Below, piece after piece: positions 55,625-64,000 of a DNA stretch of 64,000 nt (position 1 is its first letter; each line of letters opens with the position of its first letter). Position numbers and translations under genes: made by a program. Source of the DNA: Alphaproteobacteria bacterium (lineage in GTDB: Bacteria; Pseudomonadota; Alphaproteobacteria; SHVV01); the NCBI GenBank assembly GCA_965261735.1, contig OZ253470.1, forward strand, positions 576,001 to 640,000, read 5' to 3'. The notes beneath the pieces are model-generated. The model did not search any database. It was given only the letters and a program-made list of their open reading frames with translations, and had not been told where the DNA came from.

Positions 55625-56815
55625 CTATGCCGCCTCGCCCTCGTCCCATGCGAAGATGTCGTCACCGATGCTGTCGCCCACCTTCGCCGCCGACGCCCTC
55701 TCGCCGTCCCGCGCGAGGTGTGCATACCGCGCGGTCGTCGAGAACTTCCTGTGCCCGAGGACCTCGCTGATCAGCGGGATTGCTTCGCCGATCGCCAGCG
55801 CGCGGGACGCATACGAATGTCTGCAATCGTGAATCCGCACATCGTCGAGACCCGCCCGCTTTCGCAGCCGCAGCCAGATGGCGTCGAGGTTCTTGAGATG
55901 GTCTCCGGGATTCTTGCCGGCGATGACCCAGGGGTTGCCCTCGATGCGCGGTATGCGCTCCAGCAGCCATTCCATCGCCGGCGTCAATATCACCCGCCGC
56001 GCGCCGGTCTTCCCGTCCCGGAGCAGCAGCTCGCCCGCGGTGCGGTCGATGTCGTCCCACCAGAGCGTGACGACCTCGTTCTTGCGGCAGCCGGTCAGGA
56101 TCAGCAGGCGAATCGCCGGGATCGCCGTCGGGAACACCGACCCGTCGGCTTCCGCCTCGTCCAGCACGCGAGCCAGCCGCCGGTACTCGTCCGCGGAGAG
56201 GAACCGCTCGCGCCGATACTCCTTATATCTGCGAATCGAGAGCGCCGGATTGCGCCTGGGCGGCGTCATCCCCCACGCCGCCGCGAGCTTGAACATCTTC
56301 GCCAGCACGTCCCGCGTCTGGTTCGCCTGGTAGGGCTTGTCGCGCATCTTGTGATGCAGCGCCGCGACGTGGCCCCGCTCGACCGCCGAGAGCGGCATGT
56401 GGCCGAACTCGGGCAGAATGTAGAGCCGGAGGATTCGCCCGAAGGTCTCGACCGTCCCCGGCCGGCAGTTCACCTCCAGATGCGCCTCGACATAGCGCTC
56501 CGCCAGGTCGGCCACCGTCGGCTCGGGCGCGGGCGGCTCCGGAAACGCCTCCTCGCCCTTCTTCAGGCGGTCGATGACCTCCGCGGCCACACGCCGTGCA
56601 TCCTCGACGGTGATATCGACCTTCCGGCCGATCGCCGCGCGCTTCAGCGCGCCGCCCGGCGCCCGCGCGTGAACCACATAGACCTTGCGCCCGCTGGCAT
56701 GGACCCGCACACCGAACCCGGTGAGGTCGCGGTCGTAGAACACCCGGTCGCCCCGTTCGACCGCGAGCGCCTCGACCACGCGCCTGCTCAGCTTGAGAGT
56801 GCTCTTTCGAGGCAT
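55625..56815 (-). CDS. Tyrosine integrase with arm-binding domain (copy B)
   Basis: YDRDLTGFGVRV, TGCRKNE, KTG, HDCRH, VLGH, RYAH. Confidence 0.95.
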   Translation of the reverse strand: MPRKSTLKLSRRVVEALAVERGDRVFYDRDLTGFGVRVHASGRKVYVVHARAPGGALKRAAIGRKVDITVEDARRVAAEVIDRLKKGEEAFPEPPAPEPTVADLAERYVEAHLEVNCRPGTVETFGRILRLYILPEFGHMPLSAVERGHVAALHHKMRDKPYQANQTRDVLAKMFKLAAAWGMTPPRRNPALSIRRYKEYRRERFLSADEYRRLARVLDEAEADGSVFPTAIPAIRLLILTGCRKNEVVTLWWDDIDRTAGELLLRDGKTGARRVILTPAMEWLLERIPRIEGNPWVIAGKNPGDHLKNLDAIWLRLRKRAGLDDVRIHDCRHSYASRALAIGEAIPLISEVLGHRKFSTTARYAHLARDGERASAAKVGDSIGDDIFAWDEGEAA

Positions 56816-57068
56816 GCGCCGCTCTCCCATCCCCCCGTGACCGAACGGACCGCCGCCCGGGTTTTCCGTCCCGCCCGTCCGGGCGCTGGGAATTCCGTGA
56901 ACACCCAGATACCAAACGGTGTGCAATGCCAGTGTATGAGAGTCCATCCGTGACGCAAATGCAAGCCCTAAGTAGGCTTTCTCAACCTCCGTAACCTATT
57001 GTGAATGATAGTATTAGACTACCCGATGTAGCACGGAAGCATCCGAACCTATCACCCTTTCAGAGTGC

Positions 57069-57260
57069 CATGATCTACGCCACTCGTTCGCTTCCCGCGC
57101 GCTGGCGCTCGGCGAGGGCTTGCCGATGATCGGCAAATTGCTCGGACACACGCAGGTCCAGACGACCGCTCGGTACGCCCATCTTGCCCGTGACACCGTC
57201 AAGGCATCCGCCGCGCGCATCGGAGACAGCATCGACCGAGATCTCGATGCCGCGGAATAG
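57069..57260 (+). pseudogene. 3' remnant of a third, related tyrosine integrase
   Basis: HDLRHSFASRALALGEGLPMIGKLLGHTQVQTTARYAHLARD...; homology starts abruptly at the His codon. Confidence 0.9.
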
Positions 57261-57724
57261 CGCAGCATCCGAGACCCCACAGATCGGAATGGCCTTTATC
57301 CACCGACCCGAAAATCCAAGAAACCCGCCGGCGTCAAAATCGGAATATCGTTAAACGGAGACATCTCCAGGAGGTCCCGATCGCCCGTAACCAGACAATC
57401 CGCTTCTCCCATCAGCGCCGTCTCGAGCAGCTTGTCATCATCCGGATCGCGACATCCGAGCTTCGCGCCAGCGATCGAAACCCATTCCGAGACCGCTTCG
57501 AGTTGAGCCAGATAAACCGCTCTGACTTCCCGGCCAACGTATCGGTCGAACTTCGGGCGATGGAAACGGCTTCGAAGCTCCTCGAACGTCTCGTCGGAAA
57601 ACAGCAGCACACCGTTCGCCGACCGCACCGCATCCACAACCGATGGGGTGGACGCCCCTCCCGACGGCATCGCGATGTGCCAGGTTGGCGGTGTTGTTAA
57701 CGCCAAGCGAGGAAGGGGGCGTCC

Positions 57725-58747
57725 ATGGAACAGGTTCACATGATCGGGATCGATCTGGCGAAGAACAGCTTTCAGCTGCACGGTGCGCGGGCGGATGGGT
57801 CGGTTGCGTTCCGCAAGAAGCTGAGCCGGGCGAAGCTGTTGGACTTTGTGGCTGCGCAGCCACGCTGCACGGTGGCGATGGAGGCGTGCGGCGGCGCGCA
57901 CCATTGGGGCCGGGAGATCGGCAGTCTCGGCCATGCGGTGCGACTGGTCCCACCGATCTACGTCAAAGCGTACGTCAAGCGGCAAAAGAACGACGCGTCG
58001 GATGCGGAGGCGATCTGCGAGGCGTCGTCGCGGCCGACCATGCGCTTTGTGGCTGTGAAGACGGAGGAACAGCAGGCTCGGGGCATGCTGTTCCGGACGC
58101 GCGATCTTCTGGTGCGCCAGCGCACCCAGACGATTAATGCGCTGCGCGGCCATCTAGCGGAGTTCGGTGTCATTGCCCCGCAGGGGCCGGCTCATGTCGG
58201 CCGGCTGGCCTCGGCGCTTGGGGGACCGGCTTCGAGGTTGCCGGAAGCGGTCCGCGAGCTGGCCGGCCTTCTGCTTGAGCAGATCGCCGGCCTCGATGCG
58301 AAGATTGCGGGCCTGGAGAGGGAGGTCCACGTGAGAGCACGGCAGGATGAGGAGGCGAGGCGCCTGATGAGCGTGCCGGGGATCGGGCCGATCAGCGCGA
58401 TGGCAATCCAGGCCTTCGCACCGCCGATGGAGAGTTTCCGGCGCGGCCGCGACTTCTCCGCTTGGCTCGGCCTCGTGCCGCGCCAGCACACGACCGGCGG
58501 CAAGCCGAAGCTGGGCAAGATATCGAAGATGGGCCAGCGCGATCTGAGACGGCTGCTGATCACAGGCGCGATGACTGTGGTCCGCTGGGCGGTTCGGCGC
58601 GGCGTGACGACGGACCCCTGGCTGGCCGGGATGCTGGCGCGCAAGCCGAGGATGCTCGTCGCGGTGGCGCTGGCCAACAGGATGGCGCGCATCGTCTGGG
58701 TGCTACTGACGAAGAAGAAGAGCTACCGGGCTCCCGCCACCGCCTGA
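57725..58747 (+). CDS. IS110-family DEDD transposase/recombinase
   Basis: IGIDLAK, MEAC, KNDASDAEA, PGIG, WLGLVP, VALANRMAR. Confidence 0.96.
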   Translation: MEQVHMIGIDLAKNSFQLHGARADGSVAFRKKLSRAKLLDFVAAQPRCTVAMEACGGAHHWGREIGSLGHAVRLVPPIYVKAYVKRQKNDASDAEAICEASSRPTMRFVAVKTEEQQARGMLFRTRDLLVRQRTQTINALRGHLAEFGVIAPQGPAHVGRLASALGGPASRLPEAVRELAGLLLEQIAGLDAKIAGLEREVHVRARQDEEARRLMSVPGIGPISAMAIQAFAPPMESFRRGRDFSAWLGLVPRQHTTGGKPKLGKISKMGQRDLRRLLITGAMTVVRWAVRRGVTTDPWLAGMLARKPRMLVAVALANRMARIVWVLLTKKKSYRAPATA

Positions 58748-58759
58748 GAGAACGGCGAA

Positions 58760-58980
58760 GTGCGGGAAGCCGTCGGGGATGTGGGCAGGACGGAGGACAG
58801 GTAAGGGCAAAGGTCAACGAGACCGGGTTGGGAAAACCAGCATCCGAACGGAGAGCTTTCAAGCTCGCGTAACCGATTTGGACCCAATCCGCGTATCTCC
58901 ATACGGGCCCGCGGCGTGTCATCTGCCGCATAGAGAGGCCGGACACACGACAGCACCTGACCGCATGCACCGAGCCGACC
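58760..58980 (+). ncRNA. Putative bridge/seek RNA of the IS1111-type element
   Basis: Stem-loops carrying segments that match the target (CCGAACG, AACCG) and the donor junction (ACACACG, CCAT(A)CG); ends approximate. Confidence 0.75.
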
Positions 58981-59081
58981 AAAAACTGCTTGCATCAACG
59001 GGGGCGTCCACACACGTTCGGGGCGGCCCGTCCAGGCGAAACACCGCGCTGATCAGGACATTGGTGTCAAGAACAACGCGC

Positions 59082-59333
59082 TCAGCTTTCATCCGCCAGA
59101 AGCGTCTCCAGCCCAGCCGCCGTCAAGCCGTTCGCAGAGGCTTCCTCACCCAAGGCGTCCATCGTCATTGTCAGACGCTCCCAGGCGGCGCCGCGAAGCC
59201 GCTCATAGTGTTGCATCGACATCATCACGCCGACCGCCCTGCCATTCTTGGTCACGTGCACGGGCGCGCTCTGCGCTGCATCGAGCAAGTAGCCGAAGCG
59301 GTTCTTGGCGTCCCTGGCGGCAATCTTTCTCAT
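59082..59333 (-). CDS. Phd/YefM-family antitoxin
   Basis: MRKIAARDAKNRFGYLLDAAQSAPVHVTKNGRAVGVMMS; overlaps the PIN start. Confidence 0.9.
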   Translation of the reverse strand: MRKIAARDAKNRFGYLLDAAQSAPVHVTKNGRAVGVMMSMQHYERLRGAAWERLTMTMDALGEEASANGLTAAGLETLLADES

Positions 59334-59610
59334 AAGAGCCATAATAGCTAACATGGCTTCATTTTACAATTGCACCTACATCCCAGCTTCGCGCCGGATA
59401 TCCTCGGTAGCAACGTTGTCAGAGTAAATCGGCCTGAAACACATGGCGAGGTCTCTTAGCCTTCAAGAAAGCATTATCAAGTAAACTGATTGTGGGCGGT
59501 TTTCGGCATTTCTCCATGAGGCTAAGCCATTGAAATTGCATAGAGCAGCCATCGAAAATCACCGAGATTTCGGAGTGAACCCGGTTAACTTGACAAAGCC
59601 GTATTTCTAT

Positions 59611-60027
59611 TTAGCCCTCGCCGCCTCCACCGCCTCCGAAGCCGCCAGCCGCGTCGCTGCCGATCCCGTCGTAGCTGCCGCCCACGCCCCCGCCATGCGC
59701 GATCAGCGCGTAATCGCTCGCCGCGGCCCCTAGGACAAAGCCGCTCAACAGGGTCATGTCGGCGGCGTGCACCATGCGGCGCTGGCGCAAGATTCGTTCG
59801 GCGCGTTCGACCTCTTTCGGATCGTCGGACAGTTTCGCCGCTTCCGCCGCCGCCAACTCATGGAGCAACCGCTGGTACTTTCGCCATAGCCGATGAATGC
59901 GCCAGCCAGTGAAGACAATGACAGCCGCAATAGCCAGCCCGAGCGCCAACTGACCGGCGTCGAGCCGCACGATAAAAAACCAAGCCAGAATTGTTAACAC
60001 TGCCCCATCGATCAAACGACGTAGCAT
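59611..60027 (-). CDS. Hypothetical membrane protein with Gly-rich tail
   Basis: GAGGAGG RBS; two N-terminal TM segments. Confidence 0.75.
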   Translation of the reverse strand: MLRRLIDGAVLTILAWFFIVRLDAGQLALGLAIAAVIVFTGWRIHRLWRKYQRLLHELAAAEAAKLSDDPKEVERAERILRQRRMVHAADMTLLSGFVLGAAASDYALIAHGGGVGGSYDGIGSDAAGGFGGGGGGEG

Positions 60028-62147: not shown

Positions 62148-63174
62148 TCATGTGGCTCCATATATCATCGTACATGAGTAACGCCCATGACCGCTACATG
62201 TAGGGTGCCGCCACTCTCCCGAGTAAAGCTCGGCATAGGTTGGAGCAGAGGTGTCGCCCGCGATGCCGAGCAATGAGCGGAAGGCGTTGAACGGGTAGAA
62301 CCGCCTGTTGAAGCGGAAGGTGAACTCGTTGAGGTAGGCTTGTAGGTGCTGGTGGCTAACGCCGTGGTGGATACCGATCAGCCACGTCTTCAGGTTGGCG
62401 AAAACCAGATGGATGATCGGCAGGTATTGCTCGGCAACCTCTGGATCACCACACTCGGCAACAGCGAAGTGCTCATAGCCGCGCTTACCGAGGCCAGCAT
62501 AGCCGCTCCAATCGTCAGTAACGATCAGCGATCCCGGCGCGACGGTGCTCTCGACGAACCCACAGAGCGACTCGGCGCTACGGTCGAGCACGACGGCGAG
62601 CCGAACGCGTCCGGCATAGCGTCCGTCTTTCCGGTTGTCGAGCTTGGTGCCCGGCTTTCGATGACGCACCTCGATGGCACAGGAGACGGGAACCTTGTGG
62701 TGAACACCACGGCCTTCCCCACGCGTTCGCCCGCCAACCCAGGTTTCGTCCATCTCAACATGGTTCTTGGGCTGTCCACCGATCCTGTCTTGGTTGGGCC
62801 GCACCATGCCCGAGCGGAGCTTGTGGAGAATTTGAAAGGCCGTCTCGTAGCGCGAAAGACCAAGTTGCCGCTGAAACTGCACGGCGGACATGCCGGGCGT
62901 CTGACTGGCGACCAGATAAGCGGCCCAGAACCAGACGTTCAGCGGAGTGTGGCTACGCTCCATCACTGTTCCCACCGTCAGCCCGGTGTTCTGGCGGCAC
63001 TTGCGGCAGCGCAGGACGCCAGGGCGGTTTTCAAAGTGGAACGGCTCTCCCGCCGTGCCGCAGTGCGGGCAGGCAAAGCCGTCTCCCCCAGCGGGCTTTC
63101 TCCAGGTAGGCGGCGCAGGCCGCATCATCGGGGAAAAGTCGCTGGAACTCGGGTAGCGAATGCGGGAATGGGAA
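62148..63174 (-). pseudogene. IS1595-family (ISXO2-like) transposase, frameshifted, with the start missing
   Basis: CPHC..CRKC zinc ribbon, EMDETWVGG, VTDDWSGY, YLNEFTFRFNRR. FQRLFPDDAACAAYLE lies in another frame across the C5 run at 63085-63089. Confidence 0.85.
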
Positions 63175-63175
63175 C

Positions 63176-63322
63176 CACAACTACCATGGCCGGCTCTACA
63201 TCTCCTGTCCCGACCCGAAGTGGCGGGCCCGCATCGCGGAGGTGTGTTACGAGGAAGGCACCGGCCGCCTCCACGCGGGCGGCATCTCGCACAACGAGCT
63301 CTATCTGCGCTACGGCGAGGCT
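63176..63322 (+). pseudogene. Internal fragment of a PqqC/TenA (heme-oxygenase-like) protein
   Basis: HNYHGRLYISCPDPKWRARIAEVCYEEGTG...SHNELYLRYGEA. Confidence 0.55.
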
Positions 63323-63323
63323 C

Positions 63324-64000
63324 GGTGTAGTTGCGAAAGTCGGCACCCTCGTCGACGAAACGCCGGCCTTCGGCGTTGACCATGATGCCGAAGGGATAGC
63401 TGTGTTTCTGAAAGCCGTCGCCGACCGCAAGATCGCCGAATTCCGGGGCGTTCATGTCCCACCCTACCGAATGGCAGCCCGACCAGTTGCCGTAGGGCAT
63501 GGCCCCGGCCTCGAGCGCCATGCGCAGGCCGTCTCCGGTGTTGAACCGCGTCCCGCGTACCCGGGCGAGCTCCCAGCCGGGGCCGAGATAGCGTGTGCGC
63601 CATTCGGTGTTGGCCTCGAAGCCGCCGCACGACAGAACCACCGCCTTGGCCTCGAGGTCCTGGGTCGTGCTCTCGCTGCGCAGGCGCACGCCGTGGACGC
63701 CGCCATCGTTGCACAGCAGGGCCTGCGCCCGTCCTTCATACAAGATGCGAATGCCGCGCTTTTCAGCCTGCGCGTAGAGGGCCTCGATGAGCCCCGGGCC
63801 GCCACCCCACGCCTCGACGGTGAGGCCGCCCCAGAACTTGAAGCGACCGTCCACCTTGAACGCCTGGCGCCCATACATCGGCGCGAATCGCACGCCGTTT
63901 GCGCGCATCCATTTCAGGGTCGAGAGACTTCGCGTGACCAGCAGTTCGGTGAGATCGGGATCGCACCGGAATTGCGTCACCCTCGACATGTCGTCGTAAT
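63324..64000 (-). pseudogene. tcuA: TcuA-like FAD-dependent oxidoreductase, 3'-truncated (5' end outside the window)
   Basis: GRQAFKVDG..FWGG, GGFEAN, RGTRFNTGDG, GNWSGCH, RFVDEGADFRNYT, then homology stops. Confidence 0.75.

Follow-up and report, generated by a model that had tools for sequence, protein, structure and literature searches.

The closest described systems to the locus analyzed here are insertion sequences of the IS110 family, and in particular those of its IS1111 group. In the tested IS1111 members, as described in PMC11187229, an RNA from the non-coding region is recovered together with the transposase on purification and is needed for transposition; in these seekRNAs a match to the top strand lies 5' of a match to the bottom strand, and the two overlap in the target. 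Further traits of the group are a longer non-coding region 3' of the gene and long subterminal repeats (PMC11187229, PMC11208160). The repeats are inverted and 7-17 bp long in the account of PMC11208160, which also predicts that 93.0% of the IS1111 elements in ISfinder carry a bridge RNA in their right end, its loops being complementary to target and donor. The element studied here occupies positions 57643-59016 on the forward strand of a 64,000-nucleotide stretch of an Alphaproteobacteria bacterium (contig OZ253470.1, positions 576,001 to 640,000; this whole stretch is called the window). It is a complete IS110-family insertion sequence of the IS1111 group, 1374 bp long when counted with its right-hand CG. 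With a probability of about 0.9, this is an intact IS1111-type insertion sequence whose 3' non-coding region encodes a structured RNA of the bridge RNA or seekRNA type, with guides for the target and for the element's own right end.

The likeness to ISEc11, ISKpn4, ISPa11, and ISPst6 (Siddiquee et al. 2024, PMC11187229) is one of motif and layout, not of protein alignment. As far as they are described in that source, these members share the 3' non-coding region, the subterminal repeats, and a protein of 330-350 amino acids with the motif GL-P----(S/T)G, and their seekRNAs, as in the element, hold two short overlapping matches with the top-strand one first. Unlike in these members, the target here is approximately GTAAC-CG-TTCGG and not a repeat element, and the 82-96 nucleotide (nt) "short seekRNA" of the IS1111 members would correspond only to the target domain of the present RNA (58825-58890 plus flanks). 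The element also resembles the IS1111-group bridge RNAs predicted by Durrant et al. for ISCARN28, ISAzs32, and ISPa11 (PMC11208160). With IS621, as presented by Durrant et al. (2024, PMC11208160) and Hiraizumi et al. (2024, PMC11208158), it shares a single RNA with a target loop and a donor loop, a 2-nt core common to donor and target, and a recombinase of the DEDD plus Ser type that is a distant sequence relative. The two differ in the position of the RNA (5' of the gene in IS621, 3' of it here), in the core (CT in IS621, CG here), and in the length of the subterminal repeats (2-3 bp in IS621, 11 bp here); the order of the strand matches is also reversed with respect to IS621.

The element is therefore not of a new kind. 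It is an IS1111-group bridge/seek RNA element as described in 2024, standard annotation already names its protein an RNA-guided transposase, and the element or a near relative may already be listed in Supplementary Table 5 of PMC11208160. Its target, its CG core, its spectrum of 14 sites, and its doubtful right-donor guide are details, and knowledge of the IS110/IS1111 family is unchanged by it. What it offers is a well-delimited natural RNA-guided recombinase of the IS1111 type, with exact ends, a CG core, a target of about 10 bp, and 14 sites for the same guide; together with 44 natural guide variants, these sites provide comparative data on the tolerance of mismatches in the right target and on the recognition of the left side of the donor.

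Exact ends, empty sites and recombinase

The left junction of the element reads CACAAC-CG/ATGGGG (57635-57648) and the right junction CCACACA-CG/TTCGGG (59008-59022), where the slash marks the element boundary. The target's own copy of the core is the second CG, at 57641-57642, and the other CG forms the last two bases of the element. The element starts with ATGGGG and GTGGACGCCCC (57648-57658) and finishes with GGGGCGTCCAC (59001-59011) and ACACG. GTGGACGCCCC and GGGGCGTCCAC, both read on the forward strand, are reverse complements and constitute the left and right subterminal inverted repeats, 11 bp each; the former begins 5 nt from the left end and the latter stops 5 nt from the right end. 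Subterminal repeats of the same type, 9-14 nt long, occur in most of the 80 relatives introduced below. The non-coding DNA is distributed unevenly, with 82 nt 5' of the transposase gene (57643-57724) versus 269 nt 3' of it (58748-59016).

Three comparisons fix these ends. The element interrupts a PIN-domain toxin gene (PF13470, 1.9e-12) on the reverse strand, whose C-terminal part lies at 57296-57642, as supported by frame arithmetic, and whose N-terminal part lies at 59017-59092, downstream of a Phd/YefM antitoxin gene at 59082-59354 on the same strand. Excision of 57643-59016 with one CG kept joins the 76 nt and 347 nt of these parts into a 423-nt in-frame PIN open reading frame (ORF) of 140 codons. 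Contigs from three of the four public runs compared (X15, X17, and X1) join 57640 to 59015 and skip exactly 1374 nt, with an ambiguity of 2 nt at the joint, which implies an empty site with a single CG. Furthermore, the repeat occupied by three other copies of the element is present in 58 uninterrupted copies in the same genome, reading ...GAGC-CG-TTCGATC.... The restored frame, the skipping contigs, and the 58 empty repeat copies together establish the target CACAAC-CG-TTCGGG and the circle junction CCACACA-CG-ATGGGG, both of which had been reconstructed in an earlier reading of the letters alone (the sequence-only reading), and show that the shared core is exactly CG. Insertion takes place without target duplication, as CG stands at both junctions and only one CG in the empty sites. 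No circle junction, that is, no joint leading from the right end round to the left end, is listed in the public-run contigs, which drop rare forms. Both the 14 near-identical copies described below and the occurrence of PIN sites in occupied as well as empty form among public samples speak for recent movement of the element.

The transposase gene (57725-58747, forward strand) encodes a recombinase of 340 amino acids. It contains the domain pair of the IS110 family, an N-terminal DEDD/RuvC-like domain and a C-terminal Transposase_20 domain (PF01548 at residues 7-146, 1.9e-15; PF02371 at residues 212-289, 3.7e-22), and scores 318 bits against the NCBIfam model NF033542, "IS110 family RNA-guided transposase", which has a cut-off of 140. 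Among solved structures, its only sequence matches are ISCro4 (9t56, the best, E 7.3e-13) and IS621 (8wt6, E 5.7e-10, C-terminal domain only); the identity to the ISCro4 transposase is low and confined to two stretches, and this comparison is one of protein sequence alone. The motifs IGID, ME(A), K-DA-DA, and GL-PR----G align with ISCro4, and the catalytic residues would accordingly be sought in IGID, ME, K-D-SD, and the TG of GLVPRQHTTG. The latter motif, in a protein of this length, fits the IS1111-type GL-P----S(t)G of proteins of 330-350 amino acids reported in PMC11187229 and, with the 11-bp subterminal repeats and the longer downstream non-coding region, places the element in the IS1111 group.

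In the IS621 complexes described in PMC11208158, D11, E60, D102, and D105 act together with S241 of another subunit, and the top strands are cut beside the core and then exchanged to give a Holliday junction. By analogy with IS621, ISEc11, and their relatives, the DEDD/Ser-Thr recombinase of the window would bind the RNA and excise the element as a circle with the junction given above; recombination between this junction and the target would then take place at the CG core that they share, with no duplication of the target.

Target guides, flanking DNA and RNA fold

Two guides for the target were located in the downstream non-coding region, both on the forward strand. The 5' arm guide CCGAACGG (58844-58851) is complementary to the top strand of C-CG-TTCGG, that is, to the last left-target base, the core, and the right target. 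The 3' arm guide GUAACCG (58869-58875) has the same sense as the left target plus core, and its pairing would be with the bottom strand; of this string, only AACCG (58871-58875) is matched at the window's own site. Core and right target would thus be read on the top strand by the 5' arm, and left target and core on the bottom strand by the 3' arm, giving a specified site of approximately GTAAC-CG-TTCGG. Among 200,000 random 270-nt windows of the genome, 67 contain CCGAACG followed within 5-40 nt by AACCG, plus ACACACG, which is an upper bound as the sample includes copies of the insertion sequence (IS) itself.

To compare guides with flanks, relatives were collected by a protein-seeded scan with one genome per species, giving 80 loci of 66-98% amino-acid identity out of at least 537 confirmed, from metagenome-assembled genomes labelled Alphaproteobacteria, Binatia, Longimicrobiales, and others. 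The end patterns were found at both ends in 70 of the 80 loci, and the other 10 were dropped; with the window copy and two siblings from its own genome, 73 elements were obtained, corresponding to 60 distinct insertions and 44 distinct guide pairs (guide classes). The longest left-flank suffix present in the cognate 3' arm has a mean length of 6.52 nt, compared with 2.34 nt for non-cognate arms, and the longest right-flank prefix with its reverse complement in the cognate 5' arm has a mean of 4.64 nt, compared with 1.75 nt. None of 10,000 permutations of flanks among classes reaches the cognate scores, the permutation maxima being 3.34 (left) and 2.45 (right). An initial scoring of the right target that required the full adjacent core complement gave 0 for 22 of the 60 insertions and was dropped; many relatives pair only the second core base, and the right target was therefore rescored without the core requirement.

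A column scan over 47 sequences, made without any assumption on the location of the guides, returned the same regions. Left-target positions -7 to -3 equal RNA positions 58869-58873 in 0.72-0.98 of the 47 rows, with null maxima of at most 0.62, and right-target positions 1, 2, 4, 5, and 6 are complementary to 5' arm columns in 0.53-0.64 of the rows. The first core base at the left junction, either C or T, agrees with the guides of both the target loop and the donor loop in all 47 rows. One arm of the target loop is therefore complementary to each target strand, and both arms covary with the target.

The genome of the window provides a second comparison. It contains 14 copies of the element, 1373-1374 bp long and 99.2-100% identical, all with identical guide arms. 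On the left, CCG is present in all 14 flanks, AACCG in 11 (five of them with GTAACCG, the full string of 58869-58875), and GAGCCG in the other 3. On the right, TTCG starts at position 1 in 6 of the 14 and at position 2, after an extra G, in a further 2; the per-site chance of TTCG in this genome is 0.0032, so that 6 of 14 would be expected with a probability of about 1e-12 by our own arithmetic. The left side of the target AAC-CG-TTCGG expected from the sequence-only reading thus holds throughout the copies, and the right side in the majority of them but not in all. Where the left match is at least 7 nt (7-9 nt), TTCG follows on the right in one of five copies, versus seven of nine where it is at most 5 nt (3-5 nt; Fisher p = 0.09); this trade-off is suggestive only and may reflect a threshold on total pairing. 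Unoccupied AACCGTTCGG sites number nine, compared with about 11 expected from composition.

Sibling elements in the same genome, about 80% identical to the window's, have other flanks and carry other guides at the same RNA positions. In one family, GCAAAAATG and TACCACG form the left and right flanks, and GCAAAAATG and CGTGGTACA are found in the RNA; the right end of these elements is CCACAGATG, and ACAGATG stands in their RNA where that of the window reads ACACACG. Another sibling is flanked by CAAAATTG and ACCCC, and its RNA carries CAAAATTG and GGGTCA. Where the sibling core is TG instead of CG, the change is found together in the guides and in both junctions.

The region around the guides is a conserved structured RNA, predicted at 58778-58996 on the forward strand (about 220 nt); these bounds are those of the outer helix and not the RNA ends. 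A consensus fold of eight helices was derived with RNAalifold from the 47 sequences (46 relatives and the window element). Its 39 pairs are formed in 97.5% of cells, and 15 of the 39 show changes on both sides; 500 shuffles produced no equally good result on any measure, and pairing fell to 29-39% when the partners were shifted by 1-3 columns. The outer helix P1 joins 58778-58786 to 58988-58996, and helix P2 joins 58801-58806 to 58899-58904. The target-binding domain (58825-58890) consists of a stem (58825-58832 with 58883-58890, and 58837-58838 with 58880-58881), an internal loop, and the GAGC/GCTC cap hairpin (58853-58856 with 58863-58866), and both target guides lie in the internal loop between stem and cap. 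Changes on both sides are found in five of the eight pairs of 58825-58832/58883-58890 and in two of the four pairs of the cap hairpin, one of which changes in 24 sequences. The donor region is capped by a stem-loop at 58906-58940 (GGCC/GGCC, 58906-58909 with 58937-58940; GCGGC/GCCGC, 58911-58915 with 58925-58929), which is almost invariant and has one pair with 5 compensatory changes. All strings named by the sequence-only reading were found in place: the stem CGGGTTGGG (58824-58832) with CCCAATCCG (58883-58891), of 9 pairs including one G-U, the GAGC/GCTC hairpin, CCGAACG (58844-58850), AACCG, CCATACG (58899-58905), and ACACACG (58943-58949). Covariation confirms its target stem and hairpin as real and conserved, and its 5' arm match is borne out and one base longer than had been seen.

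Donor recognition and alternative readings

The left-donor guide ACACACG (58943-58949, forward strand) repeats the 7 nt with which the element ends (59010-59016). In the column scan, the variable right-end positions -6, -4, and -2 select this segment of the RNA with a score of 1.00 each and equal its columns in 47 of 47 rows, which upholds the guide as first proposed. The last 7 nt of the element equal the RNA segment in 17 of 21 distinct combinations of arm and end; the four exceptions match over 3-5 nt, three with CA instead of CG at the right junction and the fourth with one internal base different. In the proposed mechanism, this 3' arm of the donor region, beside the GGCC-capped stem-loop, would match the right end and the core of the element. 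As a separate observation, four relatives (L043, L044, L099, and L102) have CA at the right junction where the left-donor guide and the left junction have CG, so that their two core copies differ at one base; the right flank of L102 is internal element sequence, which indicates rearrangement.

For the other end of the donor, the candidate guide is CUCCAU (58897-58902, forward strand), which faces ATGGGG (57643-57648) with one G-U pair; alternatively, CCAUAC (58899-58904) is the 3' strand of P2, paired with GUAAGG (58801-58806). Several observations weigh against the main reading, and four of them concern this end. The ATGG of the left end is invariant in 46 of 47 rows, which places it beyond the reach of covariation. 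For left-end position 5, no partner in the RNA emerges (0.67; null maximum, 0.71). The three bases that follow CCAT are not tied to the core: they are ACG in 24, ACA in 10, GAG in 3, ACT in 2, and ATG in 1 of the sequences with a CG core, and ACG in 3, ACA in 2, ACC in 1, and GAC in 1 of those with a TG core. Finally, CCAUAC is possibly a helix strand, as P2 is 98.3% paired, changes from U-A to C-G in 4 sequences, and is fully compensated in L110. Only CCAU, or at most CUCCAU, is able to face the left end of the donor.

These observations lend some weight to an alternative for this clade in which the donor is read by RNA on one side only. The RNA would specify the right end (ACACA-CG), the protein would recognize the left end (ATGG and the subterminal repeat), and CCAUAC would be a strand of P2 and not a guide. 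In its favor are the pairing of P2, with one further pair changed on both sides besides the U-A to C-G changes, the invariance of ATGG, the indifference of the following triplet to the core, and the ACA that lies 5' of CCAU in the Longimicrobiales-type relatives and cannot pair with left-end positions 5-6. On the other hand, the donor region is laid out like the target loop, its 5' arm being complementary to the top strand and its 3' arm of the same sense, and CUCCAU makes six pairs with ATGGAG in many relatives. P2 contains an A-A mismatch and shows only two independent compensatory events, and a competing long-range helix, GGUCA (58812-58816) with UGACC (58958-58962), is 94.9% paired, with compensation mainly in L110, and would leave CCAU unpaired in a loop mirroring the target loop. 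We consider recognition of the donor half by RNA and half by protein quite plausible, at somewhat less than even odds.

The second loop thus agrees with the DNA on its left-donor side, and its right-donor side consists of an invariant ATGG match whose core part does not follow the core. The sequence-only reading had taken CCATACG as the donor-right guide: CCAT does face the invariant ATGG, but the ACG does not follow the core and the match does not exceed chance. Its broader claim of a complete programmable RNA-guided system with a CG core stands for the IS1111 features, the core, and the three guides that covary, and is not supported for the right-donor guide with its core; that the RNA is expressed and can be re-programmed would follow from experiments on relatives (PMC11187229, PMC11208160). 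As for handshake guides like those of IS621 (PMC11208158), the two bases that follow the left-donor guide are AC in 44 of 47 rows irrespective of the target, and the 3 rows that depart from AC (L061, L064, and L110) are too few to judge; L064 (TC) matches both of the first right-target bases and L061 (GA) the first.

The remaining points of this kind concern the target sites and the transcript. Five of the 14 right flanks in the genome are unrelated to the guide (ATAAGC, GGCGGT, ACAGGC, ATGTGA, and ATGGCC), and one further copy has only GTTGAT; the ATGGCC flank is another part of the 60-copy IS1595 repeat described below, that copy being rearranged, and the other four are unique and unexplained. 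A scan of 57500-59150 found no sigma-70-like promoter and no terminator-like site bounding the RNA. Rfam 15, which may hold no bridge RNA model, gave nothing relevant for 56500-60000 at E values up to 10; its only matches, PreQ1 (E 6.6) and sR45 (E 7.7), are at chance level and lie outside the non-coding region. Contigs from RNA libraries of two studies cover 58675-58962, which indicates presence only, since strand, ends, and level are invisible in contigs and DNA carry-over is possible. An RNA end at 58962, where the RNA-library contigs of X15 and X16 stop, was considered and rejected, as X1 stops there too and the position is better read as an assembly branch point. The single-sequence fold of 58748-59017, a long-range minimum free energy structure, reaches only z = -2.1, and the alignment fold was used in its place.

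A transcript with defined ends thus appears neither in the contigs nor in the promoter and terminator scan, and covariation between guides and flanks cannot by itself separate RNA from DNA. On these grounds, the target-like and end-like stretches might act as DNA, either as binding sites of the recombinase or by DNA-DNA pairing in the synapse. We regard this as very improbable: the compensatory helices include G-U pairs, which would be mismatches on the other strand, and argue for a folded single strand of this polarity, and the RNA of the tested IS1111 members was both bound and needed (PMC11187229). The same helices, with the experiments on relatives reported in PMC11187229 and PMC11208160, suggest that the region acts as RNA. 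That the matches arose by chance, or that the AACCG flank is really element sequence through mis-set ends, is practically negligible, even though 23% of random 270-nt windows of the genome contain AACCG on its own, since the empty sites fix the ends to the base, none of the 10,000 permutations reached the cognate scores, and sibling families with other flanks carry other guides.

Insertions into siblings, mobile copies and neighboring genes

Relatives of three guide classes are inserted inside same-family siblings, at sites spelled by their own target guides. L032 (2419-3795), whose transposase is 96% identical to that of the window, lies in the RNA gene of a sibling at GCAAA-CG-GTCAA, equivalent to about position 58811 of the window. 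L071 (3741-5128) and L095 (2398-3832) lie at about 58940, where the donor-loop stem of a sibling meets its left-donor guide; L097 shares their reconstructed site, and the host element was confirmed for L071 and L095. L064 and L101 (2420-3800) lie in the right subterminal repeat of a sibling. With the inner element removed by script, the host sequences of L032, L071, L095, L064, and L101 aligned through the junction with the window's element. The reconstructed target 12-mers occur in 15-19 of 71 element bodies and never in the targeting element itself.

The window (58807-58817), L032, and L033 read GGGCAAA-GGTCAA where most relatives read GGGCAAACGGTCAA, and the missing C removes the CG core of the target site of L032; it may reflect either protection or shared ancestry. 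These insertions raise the idea that the target loop of the clade has been re-programmed time and again, with conserved functional parts of siblings as its targets, which we think unlikely but worth stating, and which could amount to RNA-guided competition between insertion sequences with one-base "immunity" alleles. They may equally be a by-product of targeting any conserved repeat. A limited literature search for insertion sequences that target the bridge RNA gene of a sibling gave nothing relevant by title or opening of the abstract.

The genome of 5.03 Mb also contains about 60 copies of an IS1595-family element with zinc-ribbon and ISXO2-like DDE domains, for example at C1 166353 (L111:1560-3074, reverse strand). 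This is the repeat with the 58 uninterrupted copies, and three copies of the IS110-family element are found at one position inside its transposase gene. A 613-amino-acid ORF at the end of the window (62148-63989, reverse strand) resembles an IS1595 transposase as judged by eye. Four copies of the IS110-family element lie within 34 kb at C1:3602205-3635949; the copy at 3635946 retains the left flank of the IS1595 site and has another part of the same repeat as its right flank, which indicates a deletion or inversion beside the element. Two 3' fragments of 99% identity, C1:3363440-3364077 (L020) and 4279542-4279948 (L022), retain the whole non-coding RNA region, with the transposase gene largely or completely missing. 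They might serve as additional copies of the RNA gene that act in trans; for ISPpu9, PMC12288879 mentions stand-alone copies of a small RNA linked to an IS.

At the left end of the element, the repeat GTGGACGCCCC has a second inverted partner, GGGGCGTCCA (57716-57725), which overlaps the transposase start codon at 57725; in a read-through transcript, the two could fold together and hide the start of the transposase. Just upstream of the element, a tyrosine integrase gene with Phage_integrase and Arm-DNA-binding domains is found at 55625-56947 on the reverse strand, and the adjoining ORF at 57014-57280 resembles by eye a second C-terminal integrase fragment. On the basis of this gene and fragment, the toxin-antitoxin pair interrupted by the element may itself lie within an integrated element.

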